A program made the position numbers and the translations under genes. Positions 1 through 26,397 of a stretch of 40,928 bases of DNA are shown piece by piece. The notes beneath the pieces were generated by a model. That model worked only from the letters and a program-made list of their open reading frames with translations, had not been told where the DNA came from and did not search any database. The stretch's first letter is position 1; each line of letters opens with the position of its first letter. Source of the stretch: Klebsormidium nitens. Lineage: Eukaryota; Plantae; Klebsormidiophyceae. The stretch is from assembly GCA_000708835.1 (NCBI GenBank), contig DF237624.1, forward strand, positions 6,138 through 47,065. Reading direction: 5' to 3'.

Positions 1-863
1 CACAAAAGTAGCCCACCAAACCAAGCGCCAGAGGAATTGGCCCCAAACGAGGCAATACAGAATCGGCCAAGGACTGAAATGGGCCTCACATAACTGTTGC
101 GCTCTGTATGAAGACTTGCAGCTCATTGTGTGCTTTGCAAAGCCATGCAAAGTCGGACTATCGGACAGAGTTCAAGGCAGGCACAATGATCTTCACTTCC
201 CACCCACCTTGGTTCGCTCAGAATGTTGGCCAGAGGAGGCCCCTACGCCAGACTGGGAACCGGACGCCCGGTTGAGAGGGGAATCAGCGGCCACTTGCTG
301 GTCCAAGCGGTCGCCATCAGCATCCTGCGAGTAAAGAGAACTTTAGTCATCTCTGTTTTCCAGCAATGGGGCACGTTACTCAGGCAGCATTGTCAGCGCA
401 TCTGCAAACAAGTAATCCTGGAGGGCCGTCAAGCAGCATTCTGGAGCACAAGCTTAGTCGCTCGGACCTGAATTGCTGTGTGTTGCATGGCTCGGCTCGA
501 GCAAGACAAGAAGCGATGCGCATAGTGAGAAAGACAGATGGTGGAACAATACCTGCAAAGCAGACTCGTCGTCCGCGTCCGATGCATGCGGTGCCATAGC
601 CGTCGTTCCCTGCACGTCAAAACCAAGTTGAATCCCTGATAGCACACCAAATTCGGAGATGCAGACTTCAGCTTGAAACAACTTGAAGGGCAAGTGGCTT
701 CTCCAAAATGAGCATGATCCAGAGTGATGTGCTCAACATCAAGCCAGTAACCTGAAAGAGCAAAGGGCAAGTGGCTTCTGCGGATTGAGTACGATCCAGA
801 ATTACGTGCTCAACTTCAAGCAAGTAATCTGGAAGAGCAAGGCACCACATGCAATCTGCTCAC

Positions 864-2351
864 CTGCTGATCCAGAGTACAGAGTCGCGTGGCCGGGATC
901 TCTTGCGCACAGTCGAGCATCACGGAGATGGACGACTGGACGAAGCAACGAATCAGCGGGCTCTCCGTTTTTCGCACCCGCAGCGTTGCCTGCCAGGCCG
1001 CCCGAGCCGTCGTGCTCATCTTGCACATATAGAGGAACTTGGTATGGAACTAAGGAATGTCAAAGTTCACGCCAGCCTCAACCGTGGGGCTGTACATGAG
1101 CAGTCGAACCTTCCAACTCTCTGCAACGTTCTTGAGGAGAGCAGTGGTTTCGCCCCCACTCAAGGCCTTGTGGATGAGGATGTCCGTGTCTGCGAGCCGA
1201 AGCGCATGGTGCGACGTGACCCGGTCCCGGATGCGGTCCAGGACCTTCGCGGACATGCTGACAACGACCACGTTCTTGCCAGCTGCGAGATCCTCGATGA
1301 TTCGATCCAACCACTTCTTCTCATCCTGACTGACACGGAACGTCAGAGGCACCTGCGCATAAAGCGGTTCAAGAAATGAGCGCGGTGTGGGCTGAATGTG
1401 GTGAGAGAGCATTTTTCACTGGCGCGTCCTTGATTCCAGAAGTGAACCGGCTGCGCTATGAAACACAACTTCCATTAGTACTTAAGTGACGGTATGGCCG
1501 GGCCCCATAACTGGTTTAAGAGGTGCTGCATCTAAGGTGATCAACGCAACACACTTGCTTAGGGGAACTCAAGGAAAGGGCCTGGCAGAAGGCCCGAGAT
1601 TTCTGATTCGCAATTCCGCTCCGACCCTCTCAGGTGCACCAAGGGAGCGGCCAAAGCAAGGCATGCTGCATTCTGGGCACTTCAAAGCACACAGCATCCG
1701 AACAGGCCAGAATTTCAGCAGTACTCCTTTCAATGCTGGCAACACTAATCAGACGGGATTTTCGAGGGGCTTACCGCTGCCCTTCTTGTGTTGATGACGA
1801 GCTTCCCGGGCACGTGAGCAAGCTGAAAGAAGTCGTGCTCCCGCTGCCCGTACCCATCGTCCATGGCCAAAACGCGCTTCGCCCGCTGCACAATCTCCAG
1901 GAACAGCTCACTGGTCTCCATCCCGTTCCTCACGGTCGCCGCGGAGAGGTGCGCCAGGATGCTCGCCACCTCGTCAAGGATCACGAGATCGAACGGGGCC
2001 ACCTCGCCAATGCTGCCCCGCCGGAGGTTTAGGAGGCTGTCCACCTGAACAACGATTTCAGGAAAGTCCTTTCGAGACTGCAGAGCCGTTAGAAGGTTGT
2101 GCTTGTTGTCAGGATCCGGGAACCACACGTTCTTGTGATCGTAGTCGGCCTTCAGGTCGAGGTAGTTTGCAGTGCGGGGAAAGCGCGCTTTGAGGTCTTG
2201 AGCCTGGGCCACTCGGTACGTGATCATGATCGACGTGTGGGCGCGGCCGCTCGCTTGCCAGAGCTCGTCCCCAACCGCCCCGCAGAACACCGTCTTGCCA
2301 GTGTTCACGCCCGACCGGATGCCGAGCAAGCGGAATCTGCCCTCGATCCAC
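864..2351 (-). CDS. UL9/origin-binding-protein-like SF2 helicase domain, left copy (exons 2351-1775 and 1352-864)
   Basis: Walker A RSGVNTGKT, motif Ia ITYRVAQA, Walker B LVILDEVASILAHL, motif III AMDD, and LLMYSPTVEAGVNFD. It aligns with the right copy throughout. TAG at 1050-1052 sits where the right copy has Trp. Confidence 0.85.
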
Positions 2352-2965
2352 CTGCACGTGTCGACCACGGAGTTGTCAACACGACCTGACACACTCTGAG
2401 GAAGGAAATAGGCCAACGTTCTCAACAAAGGTTGGCTATGCAGTGGCCTCTTGTTTCGAACGTGTCGATTCCACTGGCAACCAGCTCCGAATGGTAGGTA
2501 AGCGTTCAGAAATTTGTGTATACGGCCTGAAATTGAAAGCTTGCAGCCCTGCGTTGATCTTAGTGCGTTGATCTTAGAACAGACACGTGCCATTAAATAG
2601 TGGTCGCAAATGCCTTGAAAGGAGGACACGTGACAGGAGGACACGTGACAGGAGGACGATCGTCAGGTTTTGCGCACACACTTATGGCAAAAAAAGAAAA
2701 CCTGGTGGGAAAAAGGAGCCCTGGCAGTAGGTGGGCGCCAAGGAGCGCCCGCTGATACAGCACGCAATCATGAAAATAGACACATGGTACAAGAAAAGCT
2801 CCTTGTAAAGGTGAGCGCCCCGGAAGCGCCGCAAGTCTCGCAACACGTTCCATGTTGTCCCCAATTTTCGCCACGTGGGTTTGCGGCCGAAACCAGAGCT
2901 TGCCAACCTAGCAGATTCTGAAAGCTTGTCACATCACAATACCTACTCATTTGGCGACTACTTAC

Positions 2966-3491
2966 TCGTTGGCGACGGTGTTTAGCTTCATCAGATCGTT
3001 CGGCATCCTCCGCCCCGCTGCTACTTCGGCCACGAGCTCAGGGGTCGACGCGCCAGGGACACGCGTCAGGTGCTCCATGTCTACCTTGACGGCGCCCGTC
3101 TCGTACGAGATGTTGTCCTCGAACAGGTCCCCTAGGCAGTATGCCCTCTCGACACAGGGAACGTCCGAGTCCCCACCCTCAGTGTTTTGGCTGAAACACA
3201 GAGCATAGATCTTGCCGTTTGGGTTGAGGTGACAGGTTATATTCTGGCGGTTCTCGTGATCCGACCCGTGTAGCACGGCTCCGTCCGATCGCTGTAATTA
3301 TAGCGATCTGGGCCCTCCTCGTAAGCGCTAGGGTGCAAGCGCTCCCTGAGCAGCGCTAGCATGCGGGCCTTGACGAACTCCTCGTTCTTCGAGCTGCGCT
3401 CTGTGCCCCGTTCGGACATGACACGAGGGTTGCTGAACTTCTCGTGGAGCCTTTGGGGCACTTCGAATGGCAGCTTGACCTCGTCACGGGC
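2966..3491 (-). CDS. Exon encoding the primase-associated Cys/His (Zn-binding-like) segment, frameshifted
   Basis: EPCYTGR-x-HENRQNITC...YALCFS...C aligns with right-copy EPCYTRHTHSGGRDLLC...FAKCSS...CC only if one base is restored at ~3259. The exon is 526 nt, and 527 nt is needed to satisfy the flanking splice phases. Confidence 0.7.
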
Positions 3492-3789
3492 CTGCAGTAC
3501 AGCACGAAGGCAGCTGATTACAAGCGCATTCGTGCCAAAACTAAGTCGCCCTGTCAAAATGTGAGGAGGAAGCCGAGAAGAAGGTCAAGACAATTCGTCA
3601 ATCAGAGGAAGCCTTGCACTGTCGTGCTGCAAAAAACCGTGTGCATCAAAGGCAACGAATCCCCTAAGCTTCACAGCTGTTGAGAATCGAAAACGAGGAG
3701 TGCGCCTCAAGCAAGGTCCTTCATTCTGCAATTGTGAAGGCCGCGCTTCAAGAAAAGACTGCTCAGACTTGCCGCAAAATCCACAGTTT

Positions 3790-3864
3790 GTACCAAGAAC
3801 GCTGTATTTACTTTCTTGAGAATCTAATGGGCCTCTTCTAGTACATCCTGCGGGTATGGCCGGG
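3790..3864 (-). repeat. Solitary family-A cassette, inverted, in the intron between the AEP and Zn exons
   Basis: gtaccaagaac...ttctagtac followed by tatggccggg, the reverse complement of the array unit. Confidence 0.8.
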
Positions 3865-3997
3865 TAGCCCATCAAGCGCAAAATCCGCTTCGAAGCAGGA
3901 AGGGCCGTATAAATTCTGAAGAAGTAACAGGCCTGAGAGAAGAACCCTGAGAGATGACCGACCTAGCGAGTGGCGAGTGTGGATCTTGGGCGCTCAC

Positions 3998-4874
3998 CTC
4001 GGGGGGCTCCAGCCAAGTCACCAGAGCGTCCTTCCAGGAATGGGCCGGATCGATGTACGACAGGACGCTCTCCGGCTTCTCGACCTTGGCGCTCCCCGGC
4101 GTCCGCCACTCGCGGTCCTTTGTGTACACGTTCAGGTCGATGAGAGCCGCGACCGCAGGATCAAACTGAAGCGCCCTCTTCTTGAGGCGCCTCGCAAAGT
4201 GGAGAGCCCCCTCAGTGTTGGAGCCGAAGACAAGTTGACGGGGAGACAGCTGGTTGATCGTGAGGTGGAGACTGAACTTGGTCTGGCCCGGGCTCTCGAT
4301 CCAGACGAAGCTGCTCGGATGCAGCTCACAGTCGTACTGTTCCTTGAAGACGACACCGGCCCACTTCTCAATGATCCGAATCACTTCCTCCGCCCCGTAC
4401 CTCTCCCCATCCTCAACCACCTCCCCGTCCGCTCCGACCACCGGTTGGCGCCTAAAAGGGAGTCCGTCCGTGCCGTCCAGATCGAGGTAGGGTTTGCAGG
4501 GCTTTCCGTTCTGGATGATCTCGGTCACCGACCCGTGCCGCCCCTCTAGATGCGACCGCGCTGTCTCCCAATCGGGGTACGAACCGAAGCTGCGCCACGG
4601 AACCCTCACCCCGTCTACGACCGCGCCGGACCACTTGTGCAGGACCACCTGCGCCTCGTGGTTCAAGAGCGCCGCCTCCTGCTGCATGAAGAACTTTGGG
4701 CCGGGGAGGCGGCCCCTTGGGTTGGCCCCTCTCTGATGGAAGCAGTTGGTGCCGTGCTCCCGCACACGCAGCACCCGGAACCCGTCCTTCTTGAAGACCT
4801 CGTTGCCAGTCAGCGGGTCAGAGTGCACCGCAGGCTCAGGCACCGCCGCAAGGTCCTCGCGCGCCACTGGAGGT
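3998..4874 (-). CDS. Archaeo-eukaryotic primase (PrimPol/NCLDV-herpes primase-like) domain, left copy
   Basis: Motif I PCKPYLDLD, motif II KFSLHLTI, motif III LIDLNVYTKDREWRTPGSAK. GC-rich exon with clean splice sites. Confidence 0.85.
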
Positions 4875-5285
4875 CTGCATAAGCGATGTAGGAACATTCA
4901 AAACGCTGCAACACTGGCTTGCCTTCGACCGTGCTCATGAATGAGTAAAACGTCAAATTTCCTGTGCAAGTGACACTTGTTGAGATAAGTTTATGTTAGT
5001 GGACGGGTTTGTGGTGCGCCAAAAAGCCTCGCTGACCATGCCTCTCCAATTACAGAGAATGATTGAGGAAGCAGATTCTGAAGCACCGCAGCACTCAACG
5101 AGCCGGCCGACCTTCTAGCAATGCACGCGGATACATGTCGGCAAAGAGAGGATGACAGACTTATTCCTCGGACATGTTGGATGGCAGATACTGGCTGATG
5201 TACACTTTGCACCATCCGAGTGATACAGATTTTCGACAGGGTATGGACGGCCCCAGCTTCCGACCATCCAGCGCACCATGGGGAT

Positions 5286-5368
5286 GTACCAAGAAACGCT
5301 GAATTACTTTAAAAGATTCTAACGGGTCCTTTCTTGGTACACCTTCAAGTTGCAGAGTATGGCCGGCC
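5286..5368 (-). repeat. Solitary family-A cassette, inverted, in the intron before the AEP exon
   Basis: gtaccaagaaa...tttcttggtac (perfect 11-bp inverted repeat) followed by tatggccggccc. Confidence 0.85.
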
Positions 5369-5490
5369 CAACTTTTAAGCATCCAGCGCACCCTGCAGAC
5401 ATCGGGCAGCCCAAGATAAGTGCAAGTAAACTGCAAACCCCACTGAACCTACAAAGTTTAGAACAATCTTGGCAAAGGGTAGCTACTTAC

Positions 5491-5774
5491 ACAGAGGTCG
5501 CTGGCGCTTCATCCGGGGCTCGCCTCCTCTGCATCTCCCTCCGCATGGGCGCTAGCGCTAGCGCCTCATCCAAGGTCTCGTCCCCCTCGAGCCGAGCTGC
5601 CGCTTCCTCCATCTCCATCTGCCGGTACAGATCCCGCATTTCAGCGTCCGGCACCGCCGAGTCGTCGATGCCCCGGTCATCCTCGGATGTGGGCTCTTCG
5701 TCGGACTCGGTCTCGTCTGATGTCTCTTCGATGTCGAAAGAGGCACCCTCTTGATCAGACGTCGCGGCAGCTTC
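5491..5774 (-). CDS. Acidic low-complexity exon upstream of the primase exon
   Basis: GC-rich D/E-rich frame (EETSDETESDEEPTSEDD) with a ttgcag acceptor. Its phase-2 gtaagt donor matches the phase-2 acceptor of the AEP exon. Confidence 0.6.
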
Positions 5775-6111
5775 CTGCAAGGAACGCCAACGGATCAATT
5801 CATGGACGCTGCTCAATTGCGGTCGGCAAAAGCTGGCAATAGGGATCTGCTCGCAGAGAATGGTGAGCCCAAGGCAAAACATGCCTGGCGCCGGGTTCGG
5901 CCTGATCATGCCTCACTGCCTCTCCTCAAACGCGCACGCAGCATCCCGGTCCGTATCCTAGTACCGCTAGGCGCCGGAGAGCTCTCCCTGCTCGGGGCCG
6001 TCCTCTTCCGACGCCCGACCTCCTGCATCCAAGCATCAGGACACTCCCGTTTCAGTGCAGGGCTCTCCTGAACTTAGGGAAACACCTCGGCGCTCAAAGG
6101 TCATCATAATC

Positions 6112-6651
6112 ATGGGCTGTGAAACCGAGTTCACGGGCAGCTTCGCTCTTTCACGCCCTCTGACCGCCGAGGAGAGCGCAATTTTGAAGGCTGTGCACGA
6201 CTACCGCCCTCAGGATGGCTTGAAGCTACCCTCTGCGGCTCCGGGTCAAGAGCGCCCGGTCAAGATCGTGCGGAAGGGAGTCAACCCCTACTACGGTGGG
6301 GAGGGATGGCACATCTTCAAAGAATTTCCCTCCTTCGACTGCCGTTGGACCGTCTCACGCGACAGGCGCGCACTTGTCTGGGACGAGAAGGGTCCCTTCT
6401 ACAACTACGTCAGCTGGCTCGAGTACCTCATCTCCCATTTCTTTGCGGTCTGGGGAGTACAGCTGAGCGGGACCGTCACGTTGAGGGGTAACTGTTTGGG
6501 CGACACGGGGTCAATCGCGGTGAAAGGCTACCAGATCTTCGTCAAGATGACCCCAATCGTGGCAGTGCGTATCGCTGAGGAATCATACGACTACCCGAAC
6601 GAGGCATTTTTCGACTACACAAAGGGGGAGAGACTTTTATACTCACCGTAG
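6112..6651 (+). CDS. Intronless hypothetical protein of a phage/bacterial-type family, tandem copy 1
   Basis: MGCETEFTGSFALSRPLT...PSFDCRW...LVWDEKGPFYNYVSWLEYLISHFFAVWGVQLSGTV. It closely resembles the adjacent paralog. Family assignment is from recall and is unverified. Confidence 0.7.
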   Translation: MGCETEFTGSFALSRPLTAEESAILKAVHDYRPQDGLKLPSAAPGQERPVKIVRKGVNPYYGGEGWHIFKEFPSFDCRWTVSRDRRALVWDEKGPFYNYVSWLEYLISHFFAVWGVQLSGTVTLRGNCLGDTGSIAVKGYQIFVKMTPIVAVRIAEESYDYPNEAFFDYTKGERLLYSP

Positions 6652-6836
6652 GCGCAACCTCAGTAGCAACGGAGCGAGGCTGGCTGTCAGAATGCGGGTC
6701 GCTGCTGGAAGGGCCCGTCTCCTGCGAGACAACGAGGGGATGAAGGGTTCAGGGACAAAGGGTCCCGCGGACGATCCGATTTCGACCATGGACACAGGCT
6801 TAGGGAAACGCTTTGGCCCTCTTAGGGCATCGAATC

Positions 6837-7301
6837 ATGGGCTACGACACAAAGTTCACCGGCCGCTTTGCCTTTTCCCGCCCCTTGACTGCCGAAGAGA
6901 GTGCGACCTTGGCAGCAGTGCACGAACACTGTCACGAGGACGACCTAGAGCTACCTTATGTAGCTCTTGAGATTCGCCCAGTCAAGATCGAGCGAGAGGT
7001 GATCAAGCCCTTGTATGTGGGCGAGGGCTTCGACTACTTAACAGAAAAGTTCCCCTCTTTCTACTGCCAATGGACGCTGTCACCCAACAGGCGAGCTCTT
7101 GTCTGGGACAAAGGGGAAAAATTCTACGATTACGTGAGCTGGCTCGAATACCTCATCTCTCACTTTTTCGCCGTATGGGGAGTGCAGCTGAGCGGGACTG
7201 TCAAGTGGAAGGGAGTCAGTCGGGGCGACAGGGGTTCGATCAAGGTCGAGGGTGATAAGATTCTTGTCAAGATGCCTCTAGCCAAGAAGGACTCACCGTA
7301 G
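6837..7301 (+). CDS. Intronless hypothetical protein of a phage/bacterial-type family, tandem copy 2
   Basis: MGYDTKFTGRFAFSRPLT...PSFYCQW...LVWDKGEKFYDYVSWLEYLISHFFAVWGVQLSGTVKWKG. Upstream (ttagggaaac) and downstream (ctcaccgtag...) flanks are shared with copy 1. Confidence 0.75.
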   Translation: MGYDTKFTGRFAFSRPLTAEESATLAAVHEHCHEDDLELPYVALEIRPVKIEREVIKPLYVGEGFDYLTEKFPSFYCQWTLSPNRRALVWDKGEKFYDYVSWLEYLISHFFAVWGVQLSGTVKWKGVSRGDRGSIKVEGDKILVKMPLAKKDSP

Positions 7302-7439
7302 GTGTCCGCTCTGTAGCAGCGGGACGGGGATTGCTGGTAGGATGCGGGCCGCTGAAGGAGGGGCCTGTGACCTGCAGGACAAATGAAGGCAAGGGGCTTA
7401 GGGGCAGATCGAGTAGAGTAGAGAAGGCAACTTCAAACG

Positions 7440-7839
7440 ATGGAATGGTACAACGATGACGGTGCGGTCCGTTTGACTGAGCAGATCAAGAGTGCCTTTG
7501 CTCTTGGCGCCATCACGGACCCAGACACTCTAAGGGCAGCATCGATCTTTCACGATGTAGCCGCATGTGCAATCACACGCCTCTGCAGGAAAGAGCACGT
7601 GCATCGACTTGAGGGAAATATCCTGGCCGTGGCTATTTCGATGGTTCATGCAAGCGGGGGGTTTCGTGGCCTGGTCGATCGACGATGTTAGTGAATTCTT
7701 CGACGAGTTTCTGAACAGTGAAGTGGGCAGATTCGAGGAGTTCAAAGGCCAGCTTTCCAAGCGCATATGCCGCGTGGCGATTGAGGAATGTAAGATACTC
7801 GCCTCCCGGGCGACGCCTGGCGCAGTGAACGGCTCTTGA
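7440..7839 (+). pseudogene. Possible ~130-aa orphan ORF split by a 1-bp insertion in a G6 run
   Basis: ORF 7440-7691 joins the frame of ORF 7567-7839 (SGGFVAWSIDDVSEFFDEFL) if one G is removed near 7655-7660. No recognisable domain. Confidence 0.3.
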
Positions 7840-8312
7840 CCCTGCGGGTGACCCGCTTGCACTGCCGAGAGCGCCATCGCCTCTGCCACCCAGTTCGGAT
7901 TCGATTGCTGAGTGAAGAAAGGAGTGCGCAAAGAATCAGGTTGCGATCAATCGACTCCTCACATATGCCAGCTCTCAATACGGATGGGTGCAGATGAATG
8001 GGCGTGCTCAATGACAGCATCTCACACATGTGGGACCACGACAGCGACTGGAACTCACGCTTGCTTGCCACGTAGCAAATGGCTCGGTGCTGACTGGCTT
8101 TGACCTGACGCTTTCCTGAACCTCCTGCATGACATGGATTGCCAAATTATTCGTCATACTTGAATCACCCGGTCTATATCGACACTTTGCGGATGCCCGT
8201 GAGAAGGGGCATGGTGATTTTGGGGAGTGGCACTTGTAGCCTGGCGGTACTTTGTGTCATCCTGGGATGGAGGCATGAGGCAGAAAGCAATTTTTGCCTG
8301 CAAATAACTCAC

Positions 8313-8425
8313 CTCCGCGGTCGGAAGCTGAATCAGGGGCCGCCCGCGTGAGCTGCTCGGGGCGTTGGGGTCGTGTGTGGGCCACCCCGGGTTGCTTTCG
8401 ATGCCCCCGATCATCAGTTGTGTCA
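8313..8425 (-). other. Exon with a degenerate 2A-like sequence (V)TQLMIGGIESNPGWP
   Basis: Direct translation. It has the same splice phases (1 to 0) and a similar preceding exon end (SKSRALI vs SKSLI) as the NPGP exon at 22510-22565. Confidence 0.7.
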
Positions 8426-8799
8426 CTGCATCGCACCAAAGGGATCCCTCAATCAATCGTGCTCAGAATGGCATGCCCTGAAGAAGCCAGACTCGCGCAT
8501 TCAAAGTTTGATCGTGCCCAGAATGGCAAGCCTTCAAGTCGGACCCGTGCATTTGCTGTCTTATCAGCAAAGCCACTTGAAGCCTCTGCTTGCCAATGAA
8601 TGCTAGAGATCTGCCACCATACCTATTAGTGCCCTGCTCTTTGATGCCGAAGAGTAGTAGACCTTGTCCGACCCGCACTCGTACGCTGGAAATCCTGCGC
8701 GAGCAGAACGTTGGCAGGTAAGATTCAAGAGACATGCCACAATTTCAGCGGTTCTTACAAAGACAAGGCTCGCGGCGCTGCAGAGGCGCACACTGTTTT

Positions 8800-10450: not shown

Positions 10451-10899
10451 TACCAGAGAGGGCCAGGAATCTGATGTTTGAGGTGGGAGATGCAGGCATC
10501 TGTCACGAGGGGGCGCGCATGAGTCTAGGTAGTCGAAAGGGCGGGTTTGCCGCTCACCTTGGAACGCGCTCCTCACCAGCACGCTCCTAGTGGCAGTGGG
10601 CTGTGCCGCAAACGTGGCGCTCCTGCGTGACAGCGCGCACAGACCCTCTGCGCGGTGGACGGGAGGCTGCCCGGGCTGCGCCTCGTCACTGGCGGCGTGC
10701 TGATGGCAGGCTGCGCCAAGACTGCAGTCCGACTCAGAGTGGTCCCCAGTCGCACAGCGGGGGCCAGTGGTTGGGTCCAGGCTGTCGTTGACGTCGCAGT
10801 CAGCGCGCGCAACCCCTACAAGCGCTCGATGGGTCAGAAATGTTGGTCACGTGCAATCGACCGGGCGCCAAGTACCCTGCTCGAGACACTGCCGGCAGC

Positions 10900-12950
10900 C
10901 CGGCCATAACCCCCATGACGTACCAGGGTTCAAATTCTTAAGAGAAACACGCCACCTCCTGGTGACATGCTGATGGCGCGCTGGCCCGACCACACCCTCA
11001 AGGATGTACCGGGAAAGAGCCTTCAGATTCTCAGAATAAAAAGCAACTTCCTGGTTCGTGCTGCTGGCGCGCCCCGATTCGTGCTCGCAAGTAACAAAGG
11101 TCGGCTCCCATGCTTCGCGCCGTCACTGAACCAAGGCCAGGGAAATGCAGTGCAGCACAAGGGACTGCAAAACGCTCACCTTGCGATCTGCTGAGCACCG
11201 GACGACGGCTGCTCGTGGCAGGAAGCCGCCCCGGCCGGAGGTTGTTTGACGGCGCGCAAAGGCCCTCACGTGCGGGGCGCTGCGCGTACTGCGCCTCGTC
11301 GTTGCTCGAGCTGGCGGCGGCGCGCTCGTGCTGTGAGGGGTCCAGAGTAGGATGAGTCGCGGCAGCGGCGGAAGGCTCGTCTGCATGGCGCGTGCCGTGA
11401 ACGCCGGTGCCTTGAGATCCTGCGCACGATGTCTCGTGAATCTCACATGATCCGCCCCAAAGATCAAGAGCATGCAAGCTGTCCGCCCGTGACCGGCAAA
11501 GACGCCACTATGTGGTACATGCTCATGGGGCTGCGGGCCCGGCCACAACCCCCAGAATGTATCAGAGAGCTGCCTAGTAGTCTCTGAAGAAAGATTGAGA
11601 TGATCTTTGGTACACTTCATGAAAGCTGCAAGCCCAGCCATACCCCCAAGAATGCGCCCGGCCATACCCCGCAAAATGCACCCGGCCATAACCTACAAGA
11701 TGTACCAAGAAAGGCCCAATAGATTCTTAGAGAATAATACAGCTTTTCTTGGTACACAACCCTTCTCTGCCCCGCATGCGCCACACCGCACAAGGGGCTA
11801 GCCATACCCCGCAAGATAAGTGAACCAGGAAACGTGCCAATAGATCCTTAAAGAAGAAAACAGCATTTTCCTGGTACACTCCCTTTTGTCGAAAGTCGCA
11901 CACCGGCCATACCCTGCAGAATGCACCCAGCCGCACCCCCCAGAATGTACCAGAAAACGCCCAGAAGATTCTTAACAAACAATACAGCGTTTCTTGGTAT
12001 ACGATCGTGATGAGAAGCAGGGTTGGTGTACCGAACAACGCTCTTCCTTGGTACACTGCTTTTGGGGGCGCCGCATCAAACCTCTTCAGATGAACCAAGA
12101 ACCAACCTTCTGTGTTCAACATCACACCTCCAGGAGTTATTGGATGTCGCGCAATCACTTTCGATCTGCCAGCCAGGGTGCAAGCTGATGGGCGCTTGCC
12201 TCAGTGATTTCTCATGTGACAATCTCGGGCGCTCACCTGCTGCTGCGATCCATGACTGAGGAACAGCAGATGACCCAGCTCCCTTCTGCAGCTGCTCGCG
12301 TTTAGGACAGGCATGGTTTGCCTTCCTTCGCGCCTTCTCGCGCCCCTGAACCCATGCTGCAAAAAGAAGAGGGTAGGGTCAGCGCGTGCGCTGGTGGGCC
12401 TGCAGCCGTGCAAAGACCTGCACGATTCAAGGTCGGGATGCGGGATGCTCAGACACGATCGAGATGTGTGTGTGTCTCGGAACCCTTACCTGCACGGTCG
12501 CTGTCGATCTTGAAACATCCCTTTGATGGCCCGTGGCTATCGCAGAAGTATGCGACCGCCCCTCCCATCTTGCCCCCGCGGAGCCCATACTCCGCGGCCG
12601 TCTCGCACTCGCGGCAGTAAATGGCATGCGGGTCTAAAAAGAAGAGAAGAAGAAGACTTAGGGAATCATGCAGGCACAGGACCGATTCCAACCCACCCCC
12701 CTGCGTACAGGACCGGCCATACCACCAAGTTTCGGCGCTGTACCAAGAAACGACCCATTGATATCTAAAGAAAGAATTGGCCAGAACATGGTACACCTCT
12801 CAACACAAGCCCGGCCTGCCTTCAGACTCTGGCGCCATTGTTACGTTTTAGGGCACGCCAAGCCATGCCACTCAGTTTTGGCGTTGTACCAAGAAATGAC
12901 CCATTGATATCTTTAAGAAACAGTTGGTCAAATCTTGGTACACCTCTTAA
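10900..12950 (+). repeat. Further dispersed and degenerate family-A cassettes in introns
   Basis: Copies near 10920, 11005, 11570, 11702-11755 (perfect 11-bp inverted repeat), 11822, 11946, 12028 (short), 12740 and 12885. Confidence 0.85.
12490..12633 (-). CDS. EsV-1-7-like Cys/His-rich finger exon, left module
   Basis: CRECETAAEYGLRGGKMGGAVAYFCDSHGPSKGC fits a CxxC...A.YG...Y.C..H pattern. The 144-nt exon equals the paralogous exon 21698-21841 in length and phase. Confidence 0.6.
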
Positions 12951-13886
12951 CCCAAGCCCAGCCATGCCACGAAGAATTTCCAGAAGGTTCTGCTGATCGA
13001 TTGTGATGAACGATGATCAATCCGCCGTTGTAAAGAATACCCTTCCTGAAACAATTGTATGTTCGATAGGCTGATGTCCTGCTCTTCATCAAAGAGTGAA
13101 ACACAATGATCCTTAATCCTCCTGCTTGCGAGCCAGCAACCGAGAATTCGCTGACCTTAAGAGCTGGCTTTCGAAGAACCAAACAAACGGTCTTTTGCTC
13201 ACCGCGTCCTGCATCCCAATCCAAAGCTTCTTTGAGCACCCGCGCACTGTGACGCTTTGCTTTCTGATCAGCAGCGCTGAAGCGCCGACCTCTTGGAATT
13301 CTGCGAGCAGGCTGCCCTTCATACTCTACCCCTTTTAAGCTCTTGCACCGCCGCCGGCGAGGGACAGGAATGTCATTGCTTCGCGAATCGACAGCAACGA
13401 TTAGAAACTCCTGCCTTTCTGCACTAATTGTGATGCGCTCCCTGTACTCTGCGGCGCGCGCAAAGCGTGCAGCCTGGCAGACCCTGTGATCAGACTTGAC
13501 CCTGCCACAAGGCCGGCTTGTCGCCATTTTCTAACAAGCACTAGCTCCGCTGGTCACATTTGCAACCACACGAAAGAGAGGTCTGAATTGCCCACAGCGA
13601 CTGAGGCACAATTTAACTCAGAGCAGACCCACAGCTTCAGAACAGAGCACAATACTGAAGTGTCAGAGCAAGGCACATTGTTTGCCCCCAAACGCTCAAG
13701 CAACTCCAGAGACATGGTAATGATGGATTCTAACTCCCAAGTAGGAAAGGCTGCCAGCGCAATCACTTACTCCAGGCCTGAAACGACTTGACCACTTGGC
13801 GCTTGCAGCTCCGCCCGGCAGTTGCTATTAGTATTTTACTCAGCTTTGCATGAGGCAAGTTGCAGCACATTGGCAGCTGGAGACTA

Positions 13887-19838: not shown

Positions 19839-20077
19839 CTGGTTGTAGACTATCTTCCAGTCTTAATTTCCCAGCTTTGACCTGCAGTTTCCAGGTAGCG
19901 ACGCATCTCTTGCCCCACTCGCAGATGGAAAAAGGTCCTATCGCTCAGGGTTGCACTTGAATTGGGCCGCCCTTGAAGCCACCCCTACTTCTGACGAGGC
20001 GACATTCGCATGGGCACCACTCGCCACTACTGCGGGTGTTTCCTTTTGGCACTGCGTGCCAAGGGCTTGCAAATCAA

Positions 20078-20098
20078 CTAACCAAGTGATTGTTGGCA
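20078..20098 (+). repeat. 21-bp direct repeat CTAACCAAGTGATTGTTGGCA, copy 1
   Basis: Identical to 27037-27057. Both copies are followed ~45 bp later by CACGTGT.CC.CCG. Confidence 0.9.
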
Positions 20099-20806: not shown

Positions 20807-23800
20807 ATGGCTAGAGGCCGGCCTCATGGCCGGTCCAAGTCCGATCACAGAGTCTGTCAGGAGGCTCGTTATGCACGAGCCGCTGAGTACAGGGAGAGAA
20901 TCGCCATCAGTGCTGAGCAGCAGGAGGCACGCATTGCTGCTGTGAATGCTAAGTGCAACATGGAGGATGCCCCTTGTAGGCAGCGGGGGCAGAAGTCGAG
21001 GGCGTCGAAGACCAAGGCAGAGGCGGCTCGGATGTTCACAGGGAGCCGTGCTTGCAAAGAGTCTGGCAGTGCAAGGAAGAAAGCAAAGAAGGGCCTCGAA
21101 CATTCGCTTGGCAAAGCTGCAGAAAGAGGTGAGTTCTGGTGCATGGCTTCTCTGATTGGTTTACCTTGTGAAGCCGAGGCAGAGCAGAAGCTTGAATGCT
21201 CTGTGCTGCAAGATAGAAAGGTGACTGGTGGGCTGGTGCAACATGTACGAAGAAGAGCATCTCGGTGTAGATGGCGAGAGAAATGAAGCTGGTACACTAC
21301 TTTGGGTAGTGCGGTCAGAATGGTGAAGGATGGCTGGCTCTGCAGTTAAGAACAGGGTTCTGAGGGGTTTTAGCGTGCATGGCCGTTTTTAGAATGTAAC
21401 AGACTTTGCCTCTTCCTCTTTGGAAAATGAGAGGCTAATTCTTGGTACAGGCTGTCTATCACAAAGTTGTAAGCAGTCTTAGCGGGCATGGCCGCCCCTG
21501 GGGTGTACCAAGCTTTGCCTCTTTCTCTAAGGGATATAAGAAGCTCATTCTTGGTACACGCTGGCACTTACACAAACCTCCAAACCTTCCACTGCCGAAG
21601 AAAGACTGCAAAAGGCTGGGGCATGCACCAAGTCTTGCATGCTTTTCACATCTACACTCCAGGTTCATCACCAAACCCCTGCGCTTCTTCATTGCAGACT
21701 TGCACAGTCTTCACTGCCAAGCGTGCGGCGCAACTGCAGAGTATGGGCTGAGGGGAAGCAAGGAGGGGGGCAGCGTCAAGTACACGTGCAGAGCGCACAC
21801 CACATTGAATGGTTGTTTTCGAGTCGACCGAGACCGCGCAGGTGCGAGCATTCGGGGAGCCTGCTCTTGACATGGTCTGCATGCAATGCAACGCTCATAG
21901 CTGCTCTCCCATTGGTTAGCAGTGGGCTTTTAGAAAAGACTGCCAAGAGATCTACAGCTCTGTATGCTTTGCAGGTTGGGCAGAGGACCAAGAGATGCGG
22001 CGCCTGAGAGCACAGGAGAGGAGATTGGAAGAGGAGCTGCGGCAACTCGGAGGGGCCTCGTTCACTGCAAAATCGACATCAGGTGGGCGTGTGGCGCGAT
22101 CTTTCCTCTCAATGGTGCTCTTGTTTTAACTGCATGGGGCAGTGAGTTCCCTTGCATGCCCTTGCCTCGTCATTGATTTCCTTGCTGTGTAGTGATATGT
22201 GATGCTTTTGTGATGGCTAATGAGTCCCTCCACTGTTCTTCTGCAGCTTGGAGTGAGTCGCAAAGTACGGGGGATGGGGCTTCAGTGCCCATGAGCAAGT
22301 CGCTCATAGGTAAGGCGCTTTGGTTGCGGTTCTGAAGCTGCAATCACTTGTACGGCTGTTGGGCTTGCTCTGTGTTTCAAGCGCTTGTAGCACTTGGACT
22401 AATCCTACTAGACGGTTCTAAAGACTTGCATGGTGGTCTTCGCTCGTGCCCTGATGAATCGAGCTGCTTCCAGCATTTAGCAATTTAACCTGTTGTTTTT
22501 CATGTGCAGCCACACTTCTCATGATTGGTGGTATTGAAGTTAACCCTGGACCTACTGCATACGAGGTGAGCCTGGAAAAGGTATTCTGCAGTTCAAGGAG
22601 GGACTGGTAAGCACTAGTTATACTCGAATAGCAGGAAGCTTCTTCTTGCTCAAAGTCCATGCCACTGAGAGAGCAGGCAATAGATGTTGTACCAATCATC
22701 AATGTCTCTTGACCACAGATTGCACAAAACAAAGAGAGCTGGCTAGGAGCTTATCCGGACATTGACAGAACGCTGCTGGATTACCTGGCACTGAAGAACA
22801 TCAGGTTGGCCAAGTGGAGAGAGTCCACATCCGAGCAGCGCTCCAGTCTTCTAGACCTGTGGGCACGCCGGTACACTGGGGAATGGTTAGGGGACTGGGA
22901 CATGTTCCTCATAGGGGTTCCGGGTAAGCAGCTCCCTCTTCTGAATCAGTAGGCTACCTTCGATGCAATCCGCTTGAGATCAGGACTAGAGGTTTCCATG
23001 AATTCAGAAACGAGGATTTGAGCTTTCCGGTGTTGCTGGTCAGCATGTAGCGGCGGGGAAGCTTGGAGAAGATGGCATGACATGGGCCTTCTGCTGATTG
23101 GCAGTGTTGACAGGTGACACAGTCGCTTCTTTGTCGATCTTGCCGAGGACACTGTTGCATGCTGGGCATGGAGTGTTTCCTAGCAAAAGCGGAGTTGCTC
23201 TGGAGCAGAAAGTGGCCTGCTGTGCAATTGTTGGCAGACCAGGTGCAACTCATGAGCAGTAGGGTGCTTGTCAGCCACCCCCCTCGTGCAATCTGCCAAA
23301 GGCTGGTTCTTCACTTGGCTTGCTGTCTTCGAAGCTCATCCACACGAGACCCGGATCTGCTTATCCTTCTGCTACAGCAGTTGCAAAGAGGGGTCAGGAT
23401 GTAGGAGCGGGCCCATCTGCCGATGTGGAGATGAAGGATGTCAATCCAGGGAACCAAGTTGGTAAGAGCCACTGTTCGGTCTGTATGGTGCAAGGCCTCT
23501 TTTACAAATTGCTTCTGGCAGCTTGTGCTTGCCTCAGTGTGCTGACAATCTCATGTAGTCACTCGAAAGGAGAACGCATTGCTTCTGTATGCAGTACATA
23601 GAGCGCCCCAGCGCAAGGCAACTCCTGACTGCCAGTTTGTGCTTGCAGGCAGGAGTTATGACACGTTTGTTGCCGCACTTGGCGCAAACAGCGAGGGGAT
23701 CAACAAAAGAAGAGCAAAGGGGGGCATCTTCACCCCTCGAATAGAGACAGTCCACAAGATCTTGTCGCGCTTGCAAGAAACGCTGGTGTTGCTTCTGGCA

Positions 23801-26397
23801 GCAACTCCGTGCTCGGGGAAGACGTCCATCTGTCAGCTCGTGTACGAGGAGGCAAGGAAGAGCCGGGTTTATGAGTCTGAGGATGTCATATACGTCAATT
23901 GCGCCGAGGTAGGAAGTGGGGGAAAGTCGTTTGAGGATGTGTTCTTGGAACAAGCCAGAGTTCCCTTCAACGAGGCCTCAAAGTCGCCCCCGAGCAGTCC
24001 TGAGAAGCAGCTGCAACGGTCGGCAGGCGATGCGAGTGGCTCCCAGGCTCCGCTATCCAGGAAGAAGCTCATTATTCTGGATGAAGTGCAGACAACGTAC
24101 GACACAAATGCGCCGGGGCACTCTCTCCTGTGGCCGCTGCTCAAGCGCTTGCTGGCTAGCAAGCAAGGCGACGTTAACTTCCTTCTGTCAGCATCCAGGG
24201 GCTCCAACCCCGCTGCTGAAGGTCTGCTGAGCACCCCCTGGGGGTTCTCTGATGATCAGCGTGTCCCTCTCAGGTGAGGCCTCCCCTGGACAAGCAATGG
24301 CTCGTGCCCTCCAGAATGCCCTCCCGTTTTACTTTCTTAGCAAAGATGCCGTCATACTGGAAAGGGTCTGGCTCTTTTGAAATTGACAAGCGGATAGATC
24401 TCAACTCTGGAAACAGCACAGCTGATTGTGCCATGCAGGGTACATTTTCACACGTCCCTCCTCATTGCAGGCCCCGCCCCGATCACCCAATGGTGGCAGG
24501 CAGCAACATCCCAGAGCCAGCGTTGCAGTTCACAATGGACGAATTCCAGCAGCTGTTTGACTCTTTCCGGAAAAGCATCGGGTTTGGTGGGGAACAGCAA
24601 CCGCTTCAAACGCTGTATGACATCATTGAGGCGACCACGGAGCGGCACCCTGGAAGCGTCCTCCACATCCTGGATGTTCTCAAGGGTCGCTCTCCATCCA
24701 ATTACGCTGGCCGCGCAGCTGAGTGGGCAGCCAAGGAAGTGGAGTTTGTGATATCTCCAAGACTGCTCGAGACTCTGTCTGGTACAAGGTCATTTCCAAC
24801 GTAAGAAAACCAAGCTCTTCTCTCTCTTATCGCAACCGCATGGTGGCGAGTAACTAGCATTGCCTTTTGAGAGTCAGCAAACAGTCTGGCTTACTTGTTC
24901 TATGCTCCCGCGCTTGCTTGTTGTCCTCAATGCCCGGGGTGACGCGTTAAGACACCACAGGCCCACACAGGCTGGCAGTCCATTACGTTGCTTGTGGCTG
25001 ACTCCCATATGTCTCTGTTCAGAGTGAGCGAATTTTGGAAAGACAAGAGGGCGCTTGACCTCATCAGCAAGCTGGTAGCATCCGGAGGCAAGGTAGGTAG
25101 AGGCGTTGAACCTGATAACTCCTGTGGCCTTATATCCACATGCATCATGGTGGTTGTGCACAAGTAGCGCTGTCCCTTGTTGGATCGAAGCCTCTCAGTC
25201 ACAACGCGCCTGTGTTGCAGGAAAGTTTGGTGGCGATCCGGAACGAGGATTCGGACTGTGCCGATAAGGCTGAGGCGCTTGCCAAATCGGGGTACATGCT
25301 CATGGAGCAGAATGTCGTCTCGTTCACCAGCAGCCTGCACATGGAGTTTTACCGATACAACTTGGCGAGGCGGAAGTGGGGCACACCCAAGTACATGCCG
25401 GGCTCCATTGAGACCTTCCTGGCTGAGGCCCTCACGAAGATGCATCCTCCTGTGCTTCAACACAGTCTGAACCTGAGCACCCGGTGTGGTGTCCTGGGGG
25501 GTGTTCTGGAAGCACACTTCCAGTTCGAGCTGTACTCGTGAGTTTCCCTTATAACATGTCATTCGCATTTGAAGCGATTAGGCGATGCTGTCAGTCTTAA
25601 ATGGTTTTGATATTGTGCTAAGCAGACTTGACACCTTCAAACGTCTCCACCATGGCCCCAATGCATTAAGCGCCAGACAGGCGCACAGTTGAGGTAGTTT
25701 CGTCGGCTGTAGATACAAGCAGACTGTAACGTCCTCTTCTTGTTTGATACAGTGCCATCACCAGCCTCCTGCCAGAAGGTGACTACCTGTCACCAACTGT
25801 CGGCAAGATATATGGGCTGGAGGCCTATGTGGATTTTGTGCTGCATGGGTCTAGGAAGTGGGCGCTCGAGCTTTTGGTTGACGGGAGGGATCTGAGAGAG
25901 CACGAAAGAAGGTGCGCTCTGCAGTGCTGTGTCTTCCTCACATTACTAACGAAGTCTTAGAGGACCTGCCTAGCACGAGCAAGCACGATGACTACAGTTG
26001 TGTTTAGGCTAGCAAGACGAGATCGTAACGAGTGATTAGTTCTATGCAGCCTCACTAGCCACCAGCATCGAACACCTTGCTCCTTGATGTGCCCCATGAT
26101 TGAAAAGAGTCTCCGGATGAGGAGCACAACTTCAGCAGTGGCTTCGGCATCTTTCTTGCTCATTCACGTTTGCACTCCTGCAGGTTTGAGCCGAATGGTA
26201 GATACCACCCAATGGTATTGGGCAAGCAGATTGATGCCTGGATTGTGGTGGACCTGCGGAACCCAAAGACTGGCAAGCCGAGACGCGCGAGGGGGCCGGG
26301 AGTTTGCCACGTGTTCTTTGATCCAACTTACGAAAGAGCCACGATTGACTTCGGTAATGGTAACGAGCAGCATGTGATCCTTACAGGTCGGGCGTAG
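20807..26397 (+). CDS. Predicted 898-aa polyprotein: basic/EsV-1-7-like Zn module - 2A-like (GGIEVNPG/P) - CR header - CR NTPase - CR REase
   Basis: 13 GT-AG exons, all phase-compatible and stop-free: 20807-21128, 21698-21841, 21975-22082, 22247-22309, 22510-22565, 22719-22923, 23378-23461, 23649-24273, 24471-24800, 25023-25092, 25221-25537, 25753-25911, 26184-26397 (2697 nt). Motifs ATPCSGKTS, IILDEVQ, EAHFQFELYS, VDFVL..WALELLVDG..EHERRF. Confidence 0.8.
21380..21560 (-). repeat. Two degenerate family-A cassettes in intron 1 of the right module
   Basis: gtaccaag...cttggtac at 21505-21557 and a second copy ending ttcttggtac near 21450. They are in the same intron as the pair at 12740 and 12885 in the left paralog. 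Confidence 0.7.
22510..22565 (+). other. 56-nt micro-exon encoding the 2A-like core (A)TLLMIGGIEVNPG/PTAYE
   Basis: Direct translation. The G/P junction is at 22550/22551. Canonical 2A is D(V/I)ExNPG/P, and here G replaces D. Confidence 0.8.

Follow-up and report, generated by a model that had tools for sequence, protein, structure and literature searches.

The locus analysed here, a window of 40,928 nucleotides of the Klebsormidium nitens genome, raises the question of why two genes that share a multi-exon 5' module should lose all similarity partway along, at one particular peptide. The initial annotation had read the module as a conserved zinc-finger leader joined by a 2A-like peptide to exchangeable payloads. 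Our analysis suggests that the two genes are probably members of a Klebsormidium-specific leader-2A(StopGo)-payload family, in which the ribosome likely frees the leader and then makes the payload separately.

The shared exon plan was confirmed. Both leaders comprise a basic exon 1, a 144-nt finger exon with a CxxC…CxxH pattern, a coiled-coil exon, an exon with SKS(RA)LI and an end reading LMIGGIExNPG (Table 1); the exon-1 peptides of the left and right genes are 45% identical. The finger had been called EsV-1-7-like, a label that did not hold, as a Pfam search of both finger exons at E values up to 10 gave no family match, EsV-1-7 included, and no Pfam family was found for the leader. The similarity between left and right ceases past NPG, and in these two genes homology breaks at the skip site as proposed; in most family members, however, it continues beyond the 2A through exons for a SAM-like header and an acidic linker that are common to several payload classes.

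Table 1. Features of the two leader-2A-payload genes, with their positions in the window.
Feature	Position	Strand	Description
Right leader exon 1	20807..21128	+	MARGRPHGRSKSDHRVCQEARYARAAEYRERI...; basic, predicted long helix; GT donor in spliced model
Right finger exon, 144 nt	21698..21841	+	HCQACGATAEYGLRG...CRAH; CxxC-x20-CxxH; AG/GT borders, phase 1
Right coiled-coil exon	21975..22082	+	WAEDQEMRRLRAQERRLEEELRQLGG...; helix 152-180 in P0005 AF2 model
Right exon ending ...PMSKSLI	22247..22309	+	start of conserved ~21-residue block
Right 2A mini-exon, 56 nt	22510..22565	+	(A)TLLMIGGIEVNPGPTAYE
Right post-2A header exon	22719..22923	+	IAQNKESWLGAYPDIDRTLLDYL...; predicted SAM-like helical domain
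Right acidic linker exon	23378..23461	+	AVAKRGQDVGAGPSADVEMKDVNPGNQ; common to several payload classes
Right payload	23604..26397	+	P-loop ATPase (ATPCSGKTS ... LIILDEVQ) and C-terminal nuclease-like domain (YVDFVL...WALELLVDG)
Right payload model exons	23604-24273, 24504-24800, 25050-25092, 25248-25537, 25753-25911, 26184-26397	+	stop 26395-26397
Left leader exon 1	13203..13527	-	MATSRPCGRVKSDHRVCQAARFARAAEYRERI...; identical to N-terminus of P0017 (KFL_006750025)
Left finger exon, 144 nt	12490..12633	-	YCRECETAAEYGLRG...CDSH; 98% to P0017
Left further leader exons (three)	10558..12356 (about 12356-12237, 11419-11180, 10815-10558)	-	
Left exon ending ...SKSRALI	8623..8694	-	93% to P0017
Left 2A exon	8313..8425	-	(V)TQLMIGGIESNPGWPTHDPNAPSSSRGRPLIQLPTAE; 100% to P0017
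Left post-2A part	819..8127	-	short exons and acidic region 8127-5490, then primase-like and helicase exons
Left primase-like exon	4897-3875	-	KPYLDLDG, SLHLT, DLNVYTKDREWR
Left UL9-type helicase exons	2662-1748, 1415-1053, 1049-819	-	

A degenerate GGIExNPG pattern matched the window exactly twice, at 22527-22549 (+) and 8386-8408 (-), where shuffling led us to expect 0.01 matches (two or more in 0 of 100 shuffles), and a six-frame scan of the window found no other NPG in a GGIExNPG-like context. Both copies had been noticed before, and the right one does end in NPGP; that the left ends in NPGW had been missed. The right 2A (core GIEVNPGP, 22530-22553) is canonical, and its skip is predicted to fall between 22550 and 22551. 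In the left one (core GIESNPGW, 8405-8382) Trp replaces Pro, and the skip is predicted to fall between 8385 and 8384. Of 11 identical residues in the two copies, 7 are encoded by differing synonymous codons. The extended core of viral StopGo peptides is (D/G/C/N)(V/I)ExNPGP, and M or W at p19, rare and about 92% active, are the sole p19 variants flagged in the available part of a virus survey, in which W was 91.5% active in native context (Li et al. 2026, PMC12846837). Judged by sequence, the right octapeptide fits this core and the left one fits the rare active variant with W at p19.

In the right gene, an in-frame TGA lies two codons 5' of the ATG, and the five leader exons, the 2A exon included, have AG/GT borders throughout and form a single open frame. 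Exon 1 is 65-81% identical to that of eight Klebsormidium proteins and the finger exon 84% identical to P0001/P0002; in the AF2 model of the paralogue P0005 these regions correspond to a helix (11-53) and to two beta hairpins, respectively. The stretch 22500-22919, covering the 2A exon and the header, is 43% identical to the transcript-derived P0002. The homologous header of P0005 begins a few residues past the skip site and is confidently folded, with a pLDDT of 87-95 for residues 231-300, its helical core. It matches the SAM-type oligomerisation domain of LEAFY (4ude_B; Z 9.1, rmsd 2.7, 73 aa) and, secondly, the ASK3 SAM domain (Z 6.1). The acidic linker is also present in P0001-P0004, P0006, P0007 and P0011. 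Downstream of the 2A, a homology-guided model with GT-AG introns and one terminal stop gives 653 aa, its inner borders near 25050-25248 being uncertain. This payload carries Walker A and B motifs, matches Pfam AAA_22 (E 4.4e-5) and is 62-96% identical to P0069/P0070 of K. nitens; its paralogue P0006 resembles AAA_35/PDDEXK_3 clusters and a Mucoromycota 'Crinkler family' cluster. The architecture first proposed, a CR header followed by an NTPase and a REase, is retained for the ATPase and the nuclease-like end but not for the header, which is SAM-like in a paralogue and gave no Pfam Crinkler match.

Exon 1 and the finger, SKSRALI and 2A exons of the left leader share 93-100% identity with KFL_006750025 of K. 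nitens (P0017). Three further leader exons bring the predicted leader to about 390-400 aa; the first two match P0017 at 100% identity, and the third (10815-10558) is covered solely by a 59% HSP extending beyond the exon. The assignment of the left payload as an AEP primase with a UL9-like helicase was borne out by a Pfam Herpes_ori_bp match (E 3.1e-8, 32.6 bits, cutoff 20), by collinearity with residues 615-1458 of the 1945-aa P0009 at 63-71% identity, ending at position 882 of the window, and by the resemblance of the P0009 primase part to Nucleocytoviricota AEP_C962R/Herpes_UL52 clusters (score 0.92). From the paralogues P0009, P0065 and P0067 we infer that the left leader is continuous with the primase. 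The window also contains a second, diverged primase-helicase, at 30480-35413.

Further leader-2A-payload loci were found outside the window, in at least 36 related database proteins, and the objection that none exist fails because 38 of the 70 related proteins retrieved carry the cassette. These contain 39 instances of the leader-type 2A peptide, counts that come from paralogues and are not independent, and all the 2A-carrying relatives with a named source are from Klebsormidium. The family leaders measure 220-640 aa and derive from 4-7 exons. At p11, G is present in 37 of the 39 instances; p12 is G in 26, C in 7, A in 4 and E and D in one each. The payload had been expected to start with Pro, which holds for 27 instances, p19 being W in 8, M in 2 and L and F in one each. 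The extended core is matched by 20 of the 39, and 10 more match it with W or M at p19; the 9 that depart from any validated core have A at p12 (four, three of them near-identical), L at p13, D or K at p14, or L or F at p19. Among the 27 instances with sufficient flank, a block of about 21 residues, P-[MK]-S-x-S-L-I-A-x-L-L-x-I-G-[GC]-[VI]-E-x-N-P-G, is kept at 74-100%, its NPG columns being fixed by construction because NPG belonged to the selection pattern. On either side conservation drops to about 40% or less, with the exception of a Glu at p23 (17/27). In the primase tree one copy with P at p19 lies among copies with W, the M copies stand apart, and p11-p18 are intact.

The payloads of the family comprise NACHT/STAND ATPases, AAA_35-like ATPases ending in a nuclease-like part, and a fusion of a giant-virus-like primase to a UL9-type helicase. 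Those behind right-type leaders are of the NACHT, nSTAND3-like, AAA_35-nuclease-like, CCHC-ubiquitin-STAND and primase-helicase types, and those behind left-type leaders of both the primase-helicase and the AAA_35-nuclease-like type. Leader types are shuffled against payload types, and the modular cassette with exchangeable payloads envisaged from the window is a recurrent arrangement. A leader is not obligatory, since a NACHT-type payload located mid-window lacks one. That leader, 2A and payload occupy one mRNA, as the initial annotation supposed, is supported in paralogues by Trinity ORFs marked 'complete' in a transcriptome labelled Klebsormidium subtile, which hold all three parts in a single ORF, although these isoforms combine pieces of different paralogues and may in part be chimeric. 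Leader, 2A and payload also follow one another in over 20 independent gene models of K. nitens; the public model of the left locus (P0017), however, stops at 556 aa, short of the primase.

The two genes could also form part of a multi-copy mobile or endogenised virus-like element, in which the primase-helicase would be the replication gene, the STAND and nuclease proteins the cargo, and the leader-2A a means of making polyproteins in the viral style. This explanation is compatible with StopGo, and we consider it possible but doubtful. The primase-helicase paralogues number at least 10, with 57-88% identity, and are spread over many scaffolds, often small ones; the window has a second, diverged copy, and such a gene adjoins a NACHT-type gene both here and as the consecutive KFL_002940130/140 on one contig; the viral resemblances of the primase and helicase, and the fact that 2A is otherwise typical of viruses and retrotransposons, point the same way. 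However, the 87 ORFs of at least 100 aa include no integrase, transposase, capsid or reverse transcriptase, spliceosomal-type introns are numerous in every gene, neither terminal repeats nor element borders came to light, and a viral contig collection gave no relative of the leader or the primase. Accordingly, the term "mobile element" in the initial annotation was not upheld.

It is less probable, and in our opinion unlikely, that the block is a conserved linker or interaction motif that works without skipping, in ordinary fused multidomain proteins whose zinc-finger/coiled-coil N-terminus works in cis, for instance to bind DNA or to oligomerise NLR-like proteins. The nine instances off the validated cores would agree with this, particularly those with A at p12, since D12A abolishes 2A activity in the FMDV context (Li et al. 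2026, PMC12846837), as would the statement that StopGo is seldom met in cellular genes and that plant viruses do not use it. On the other hand, the block has the length of active StopGo peptides, an L-rich upstream context, G at p11 and an E-x-NPG-[P/W/M] core, and the folded header starts right past the site. An exact octapeptide kept across paralogues with diverged flanks, and a p19 that varies mostly among P, W and M, are hard to explain for a plain linker. StopGo is reported as active in every eukaryotic system tested, plant cells included, and FMDV 2A processing has been reported in Chlamydomonas (PMC3427385).

That the leader-payload joins are gene-prediction or assembly artefacts linking adjacent, separate transcription units is very improbable: the short left-locus model, the models with leader and header alone (P0005, P0007), the mosaic Trinity isoforms and the leaderless NACHT-type payload could be read in this way, but the right gene stays in frame over six GT-AG junctions in a row between its ATG and the payload, the 56-nt 2A exon has no start codon in its own use, first payload exons, that of the leaderless gene included, start at acceptor sites without an ATG, and transcript contigs span the junctions in paralogues.

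We therefore favor StopGo, and infer from the peptides and their conservation that skipping happens in Klebsormidium. The shared 5' module would encode a basic zinc-finger/coiled-coil leader ending in 2A, and the ribosome would likely let go of it after NPG and continue on the same mRNA. The right gene would yield a leader of about 226 aa and a 653-aa protein starting with Pro, in which a SAM-like oligomerisation header and an acidic linker precede an AAA_35-like ATPase and a nuclease-like end, and the left gene a leader of about 400 aa and a primase-helicase starting with Trp. Duplication may have given rise to new combinations together with exon-level recombination, with the small exons for the 2A, header and linker as the points of exchange. 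Many payloads resemble conflict proteins of the NLR or Crinkler type, or replication enzymes of giant viruses, and the cassette may therefore serve proteins that must be kept at a low or fixed dose, by providing a shared promoter, a nuclear leader protein made alongside them and a defined free N-terminus. If skipping is real, the family would represent a use of StopGo almost unknown in cellular genes.

Natural ubiquitin-fusion genes join a ubiquitin with the end LRLRGG to a second protein, from which a protease, rather than ribosomal skipping, separates it once translation is complete. These genes likewise obtain two proteins, the second with a defined N-terminus, from one ORF. A ubiquitin-like domain ending in LRLRGGG occurs in one relative, P0011, rather than in the window; it lies 5' of another header in a protein that also carries a 2A, and is a predicted second release device.

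Crinkler (CR/CRN) effectors combine a header, a P-loop NTPase and a REase (Zhang et al. 2016, via Amaro et al. 2017, PMC5289972). They share with the Klebsormidium proteins the C-terminal ATPase and nuclease-like module and the header-plus-payload design, but here the Pfam Crinkler (ubiquitin-like) header was not found, the header being SAM-like, and the proteins stand behind a leader and a 2A, with no sign of secretion. APE-type non-LTR retrotransposons also carry 2A-like sequences near an ORF 5' end in a multi-copy genomic element (Odon et al. 2013, PMC3708506), whereas the Klebsormidium genes are intron-rich, their payloads differ and RT/APE endonuclease was not detected in them. With viral StopGo and class A peptides, as far as described in the available parts of Li et al. 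(2026) and Rao et al. (2025, PMC12338488), the Klebsormidium 2A shares the octapeptide core, an upstream stretch that is rich in L and ends in G, and the tolerated variants (G or C at p12, W or M at p19); those peptides belong to RNA-virus polyproteins, in contrast to a cellular spliced gene family with the 2A on its own mini-exon.

The arrangement had been thought undescribed, which is nearly right: Table S2 of Rao et al. (2025) holds only one Klebsormidium protein, with two motifs (LLRGGVESNPGP) and activity given as N/A, and the accessible text does not discuss it. Nevertheless, 2A-like sequences are published at the N-terminus of Strongylocentrotus purpuratus NLRs (Roulston et al. 2016, PMC4981915). 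There too, StopGo lies upstream of NACHT/STAND proteins in cellular, non-viral genes and in many members of an expanded family. However, as described in that source, the sea-urchin 2A is a 26-aa N-terminal peptide doubling as a signal sequence, with D at p12, whereas that of Klebsormidium ends a leader of several hundred residues, has G or C at p12 and varies among P, W and M at p19; its payloads also include nuclease-like and primase-helicase proteins, and its host is a streptophyte alga.

The degenerate DNA pattern for GGIExNPG matched the window twice, at 22527-22549 (+) and 8386-8408 (-), against 0.01 matches expected from shuffling, and two hits were reached in 0 of 100 shuffles; only 2 of the 10 NPG tripeptides encoded in the six frames of the window lie in this context. 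The copy in the right gene (plus strand, from 20807) reads ATLLMIGGIEVNPGPTAYE and that in the left gene (minus strand, from 13527) reads TQLMIGGIESNPGWPTHDP. Both were compared with the StopGo core, whose positions are numbered here p11 to p19, p19 being the residue after the predicted skip and Pro in the canonical motif. Li et al. 2026 (PMC12846837) extended this core to (D/G/C/N)(V/I)ExNPGP, with G as common as D at p12, and reported the rare p19 variants M and W to be 92.3% and 91.5% active in their native contexts. The right-gene octapeptide GIEVNPGP fits the extended core, and the left-gene GIESNPGW fits it only by way of the published rare variant p19 = W; the initial annotation had read a Pro at the left skip site, where the sequence has a Trp.

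The 2A peptide is in frame, with coding sequence on either side, as judged from GT-AG spliced models with which the transcript-derived ORFs of paralogues agree. The ATG of the right gene has an in-frame TGA two codons upstream, and a homology-guided extension adds seven further exons up to a single stop at 26395-26397, giving 653 residues downstream of the skip site in a model with uncertain borders near 25050-25248. The left leader and 2A exons are 93-100% identical to the K. nitens protein KFL_006750025 (P0017, 556 aa; P0001 to P0070 denote the 70 related proteins fetched), which assigns the window to that alga. The left primase-like and helicase exons align collinearly with P0009 (1945 aa) over its residues 615-1458, at 63-71% identity. 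The public model P0017 ends before the primase; we infer the continuity of the left leader with the primase from three paralogous models (P0009, P0065 and P0067) in which the 2A peptide runs on into it.

Exons of the two window genes that carry a leader, a 2A peptide and a payload
Feature	Position	Strand	Remarks
Right-gene exon 1	20807-21128	+	AG/GT borders, one frame
Right-gene finger exon, 144 nt, CxxC-x20-CxxH	21698-21841	+	AG/GT borders, one frame
Right-gene exon	21975-22082	+	AG/GT borders, one frame
Right-gene exon	22247-22309	+	AG/GT borders, one frame
Right-gene 2A mini-exon, 56 nt	22510-22565	+	AG/GT borders, one frame
Right-gene exon after 2A	22719-22923	+	AG/GT borders, one frame
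Left-gene exon 1	13527-13203	-	
Left-gene finger exon, 144 nt	12633-12490	-	Three further leader exons after
Left-gene exon with SKSRALI end	ends 8623	-	
Left-gene 2A exon, 113 nt	8425-8313	-	
Left-gene primase-like exon	4897-3875	-	Helicase exons downstream, same strand

Non-coding sequence around the leaders showed two further features. About 50-70 nt upstream of the right-leader ATG (20741-20809, +) match paralogue models that read through this stretch as …GQE[ST]WSLN..[IV]M in P0008 and P0010, with P0014 overlapping from 20741; this similarity suggests that the promoter or 5' UTR was duplicated together with the leader. The introns of the left leader (8800-12990) are crowded by a repeat of about 120-130 nt, present at least 16 times, with the core GTACCAAGAAA...TTTCTTGGTAC and CCGGCCATRCCC ahead of it; similar cores occur at 21290-21560, and an N run (9162-9838) lies inside the array.

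The arrangement proposed by the initial annotation, a zinc-finger leader joined by a 2A peptide to exchangeable payloads, proved to be that of a real and extensive family in which leader and payload types are cross-combined. Right-gene exon 1 used as a query retrieved 11 longer proteins, 10 of which carry the leader, the finger and G-[GA]-[VIL]-E-x-NPGP followed by differing downstream parts. An exhaustive HMMER search with P0005 (313 aa) returned 48 representatives at E <= 1e-3, and 9 and 2 further proteins were found through the primase and ATPase exons, respectively. Among 30 relatives looked up, 20 were from K. nitens and 4 were Trinity ORFs from a transcriptome labelled K. subtile, and none of the named ones came from outside the genus Klebsormidium. 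Metagenome contigs were scanned twice, once with exon 1 and once with the leader alignment, and viral contigs with the leader alignment as well as the primase ORF; no relative was detected in either set.

Some members depart from the arrangement of the window genes. In P0025, P0027, P0028, P0036, P0040, P0048 and P0069 a second leader N-terminus (…ALPPS.IR.L.ASA.RGF… or …GLEGLV…) takes the place of the MARGRPHGRSKSDH exon, and it still precedes the 2A peptide and, where checked, the finger; it seems, therefore, that the cassette has the finger plus 2A as its constant core. In the 327-aa P0013 (KFL_010330010) a unit made up of a coiled coil, the 2A (LLLRGGVESNPGP) and a SAM-like header occurs twice in tandem.

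The motif was tallied in the fetched proteins, a set in which some entries are near-duplicates and which also includes the left gene of the window itself, and 39 instances were found in 38 of the 70. Position p11 was G in 37 of the 39; p12 was G in 26, C in 7, A in 4, and E and D in 1 each; p19 was P in 27, W in 8, M in 2, and L and F in 1 each. The extended core was matched by 20 instances and by 10 more with W or M at p19, while 9 deviate elsewhere, and those with A at p12 are a real concern for a StopGo reading. Across 27 instances conservation is 74-100% within a block some 21 residues long, P-[MK]-S-x-S-L-I-A-x-L-L-x-I-G…NPG, whose NPG columns were part of the pattern by which the instances were picked, and the flanking columns are mostly conserved at about 40% or less. 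The upstream S-L-I-A-x-L-L-x-I-G of this block (74-100%) resembles the LLLLSG-like or L-rich contexts of StopGo peptides. The two window copies use different synonymous codons at 7 of their 11 identical residues, which argues that selection acts on the 2A peptide. In a tree of the primase domain one copy with P at p19 stands among copies with W, and two M copies stand apart, p11-p18 being intact throughout; a p19 that varies while p11-p18 are kept is the pattern expected of a working signal with a free last position. Taken as sequence evidence, these data make it likely that the Klebsormidium peptide is a StopGo signal.

The break in homology had been placed at the skip site by the initial annotation. 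Across the family homology is usually unbroken there, because in most members a header of about 75 residues and an acidic linker exon (KRGQD…DVEM.D…) come first after the 2A peptide, with the variable part behind them. The AF2 model of P0005 (30 rows) reached a pLDDT of 87-95 in the helical core of the header, and its residues 236-308 matched the SAM-type oligomerisation domain of LEAFY (4ude_B) with Z 9.1 and an rmsd of 2.7 over 73 of 78 residues; other SAM matches were 6v0m_A (Z 6.1), 2dkz (Z 5.1) and 8bw8 (Z 5.0), and Foldseek gave a weak match (E 0.52, prob 0.96). Judged on this paralogue, which is only 31% identical to the 2A exon and header of the window, the header after the 2A peptide is predicted to be a five-helix SAM fold, an assignment made at fold level only because no Pfam SAM match was obtained. 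The leader, finger and headers matched no Pfam family even at E up to 10. The model of P0003, which carries a second header type ("EIEMEVCIW..."), had 7 rows and a mean pLDDT of 37.5 and was discarded.

Two of the labels first given to these modules were not supported. The finger had been called EsV-1-7-like; Pfam EsV-1-7 was not matched by either finger exon or by P0005 at E up to 10, the finger spacing is CxxC-x20-CxxH, and a shared A-x-[YF]-G behind the first pair of Cys makes for a loose resemblance. The header of the right payload had been called a Crinkler header, and the ubiquitin-like Pfam Crinkler domain (PF20147) was absent from the window ORFs, 24 family proteins and the P0003 header, the P0005 header matching SAM domains. 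According to Zhang et al. 2016 (via Amaro et al. 2017, PMC5289972), CR headers also include unrelated helical ones.

The payloads comprise NACHT (P0004), nSTAND3-like (P0001) and AAA_22/STAND (P0011 and P0012) classes, an ATPase with a nuclease-like end (the window right gene and its paralogue P0006), and a primase-helicase whose primase part resembles giant-virus AEP families. In the right payload Walker A and B are present and AAA_22 scored 24.2 bits against a cutoff of 27. The Atlas look-alikes of P0006 were AAA_35/PDDEXK_3 clusters and a Mucoromycota cluster named Crinkler (0.96-0.97; TM 0.64-0.67). The ATPase-nuclease payload gave no Pfam nuclease match, and the catalytic D...E-x-K was not found in its nuclease-like end, which reads D...E-L-L. 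In the left primase-like ORF one can read DLD, SLHLT and, downstream, a D...R stretch; this ORF had no useful match in Pfam, PHROGs or PDB sequences, and the Atlas features of the primase part of P0009 scored 0.92 to AEP_C962R/Herpes_UL52 clusters. The left helicase ORF (2662-1745) scored 32.6 bits (cutoff 20; E 3.1e-8) against Pfam Herpes_ori_bp (PF02399), the match being confined to the Walker A region, positions 120-188 of the 820 in the profile.

Leaders and payloads occur in several combinations. Five payload classes were found behind right-type leaders, which are 65-81% identical to the window right exon 1. Left-type leaders (57-100%) stand ahead of the primase-helicase in P0067, P0068 and the window left gene, and also ahead of an ATPase-nuclease of the right-gene type in P0070; a third leader type precedes this same payload in P0069. 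From the linker exon on, P0002 and P0006 share 95-100% identity, against only 25-75% through most of the leader, 2A and header. The family as a whole clearly exemplifies how an expression cassette is shuffled at the level of exons. P0002, P0003 and P0006 form mosaics, in which identical leaders are followed by different 2A/header exons or identical payloads are preceded by different leader, 2A and header, and the switches appear to lie near module borders; these mosaics may reflect recombination, alternative 5' cassettes or Trinity chimeras.

The window DNA is eukaryotic and intron-rich. Between the two leaders lies a NACHT-type payload, 18873 to 15386 (-), 54-70% identical to residues 333-1052 of P0004 (KFL_002940140), whose first homologous exon starts at a splice acceptor, without an ATG. 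No leader (18801-20810, both strands, E up to 10), 2A, header or linker was found upstream, and this gene may have been decapitated or may draw on other 5' exons. A second primase-helicase at 30480-35413 (+), 27-40% identical to P0009 and broken by an N run (32075-32760), lies without an upstream leader or 2A; this copy and the left gene, which point in opposite directions, enclose the locus. The cassette had been attributed to a mobile element, a label left unsupported: since no transposase, integrase, capsid or reverse transcriptase was seen in the 87 window ORFs, its mobility is hypothetical.

P0011 (KFL_008300050) differs in carrying, at about residues 480-560, CCHC knuckles after the 2A peptide and then a ubiquitin-like domain with LRLRGGG at its end; a second header and a STAND ATPase follow immediately. 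The ubiquitin match (21.7 bits) is under the cutoff; the LRLRGGG would be a second, protease-based release site within one ORF.

We regard as improbable a 'two proteins per message' system in Klebsormidium, in which the shared leader would be co-made with dangerous proteins. One zinc-finger leader would be produced from the same promoter and at a fixed ratio with each NLR-like ATPase, nuclease or virus-like replicase, and would act as a common regulator or antidote of the payload repertoire. The residue at p19 (Pro, Trp, Met, Phe or Leu) would be selected as the N-terminal residue of the payload, setting its half-life through an N-degron, and the ubiquitin LRLRGG release site of one member would be a second device of the same logic.

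The alternation of P, W and M at p19 among close paralogues amounts to a natural experiment that matches viral and in vitro results, and for the engineering of plants and algae the family is a source of 2A sequences native to the green lineage. Current papers state that cellular organisms make little or no use of StopGo and that plant viruses do not employ it naturally, though plant ribosomes support it; against this statement of rarity, dozens of cellular genes in a streptophyte alga, all of them spliced, encode a conserved peptide of the StopGo type. A full-text search (subscription-only papers and bioRxiv supplements outside its scope) returned no paper linking Klebsormidium with 2A-like or NPGP; among the papers listed on Klebsormidium with Crinkler or with NACHT/STAND nothing was relevant, and those listed for 2A/StopGo in green algae covered only biotechnological uses or were general reviews. 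The arrangement, which the initial annotation did not know to have been described, was met in this literature only through the sole Klebsormidium entry in the Table S2 published by Rao et al. 2025 (PMC12338488), a protein listed with two LLRGGVESNPGP motifs, activity N/A and no discussion; the peptide of that entry occurs twice in P0013. The nearest published parallels are the 2A sequences of non-LTR retrotransposons (Odon et al. 2013, PMC3708506) and the sea-urchin NLRs, in which 2A-like sequences are N-terminal signal peptides (Roulston et al. 2016, PMC4981915). As in sea urchin, the peptide stands ahead of STAND proteins of the immune type, which would link 2A to NLR-like repertoires by convergence.
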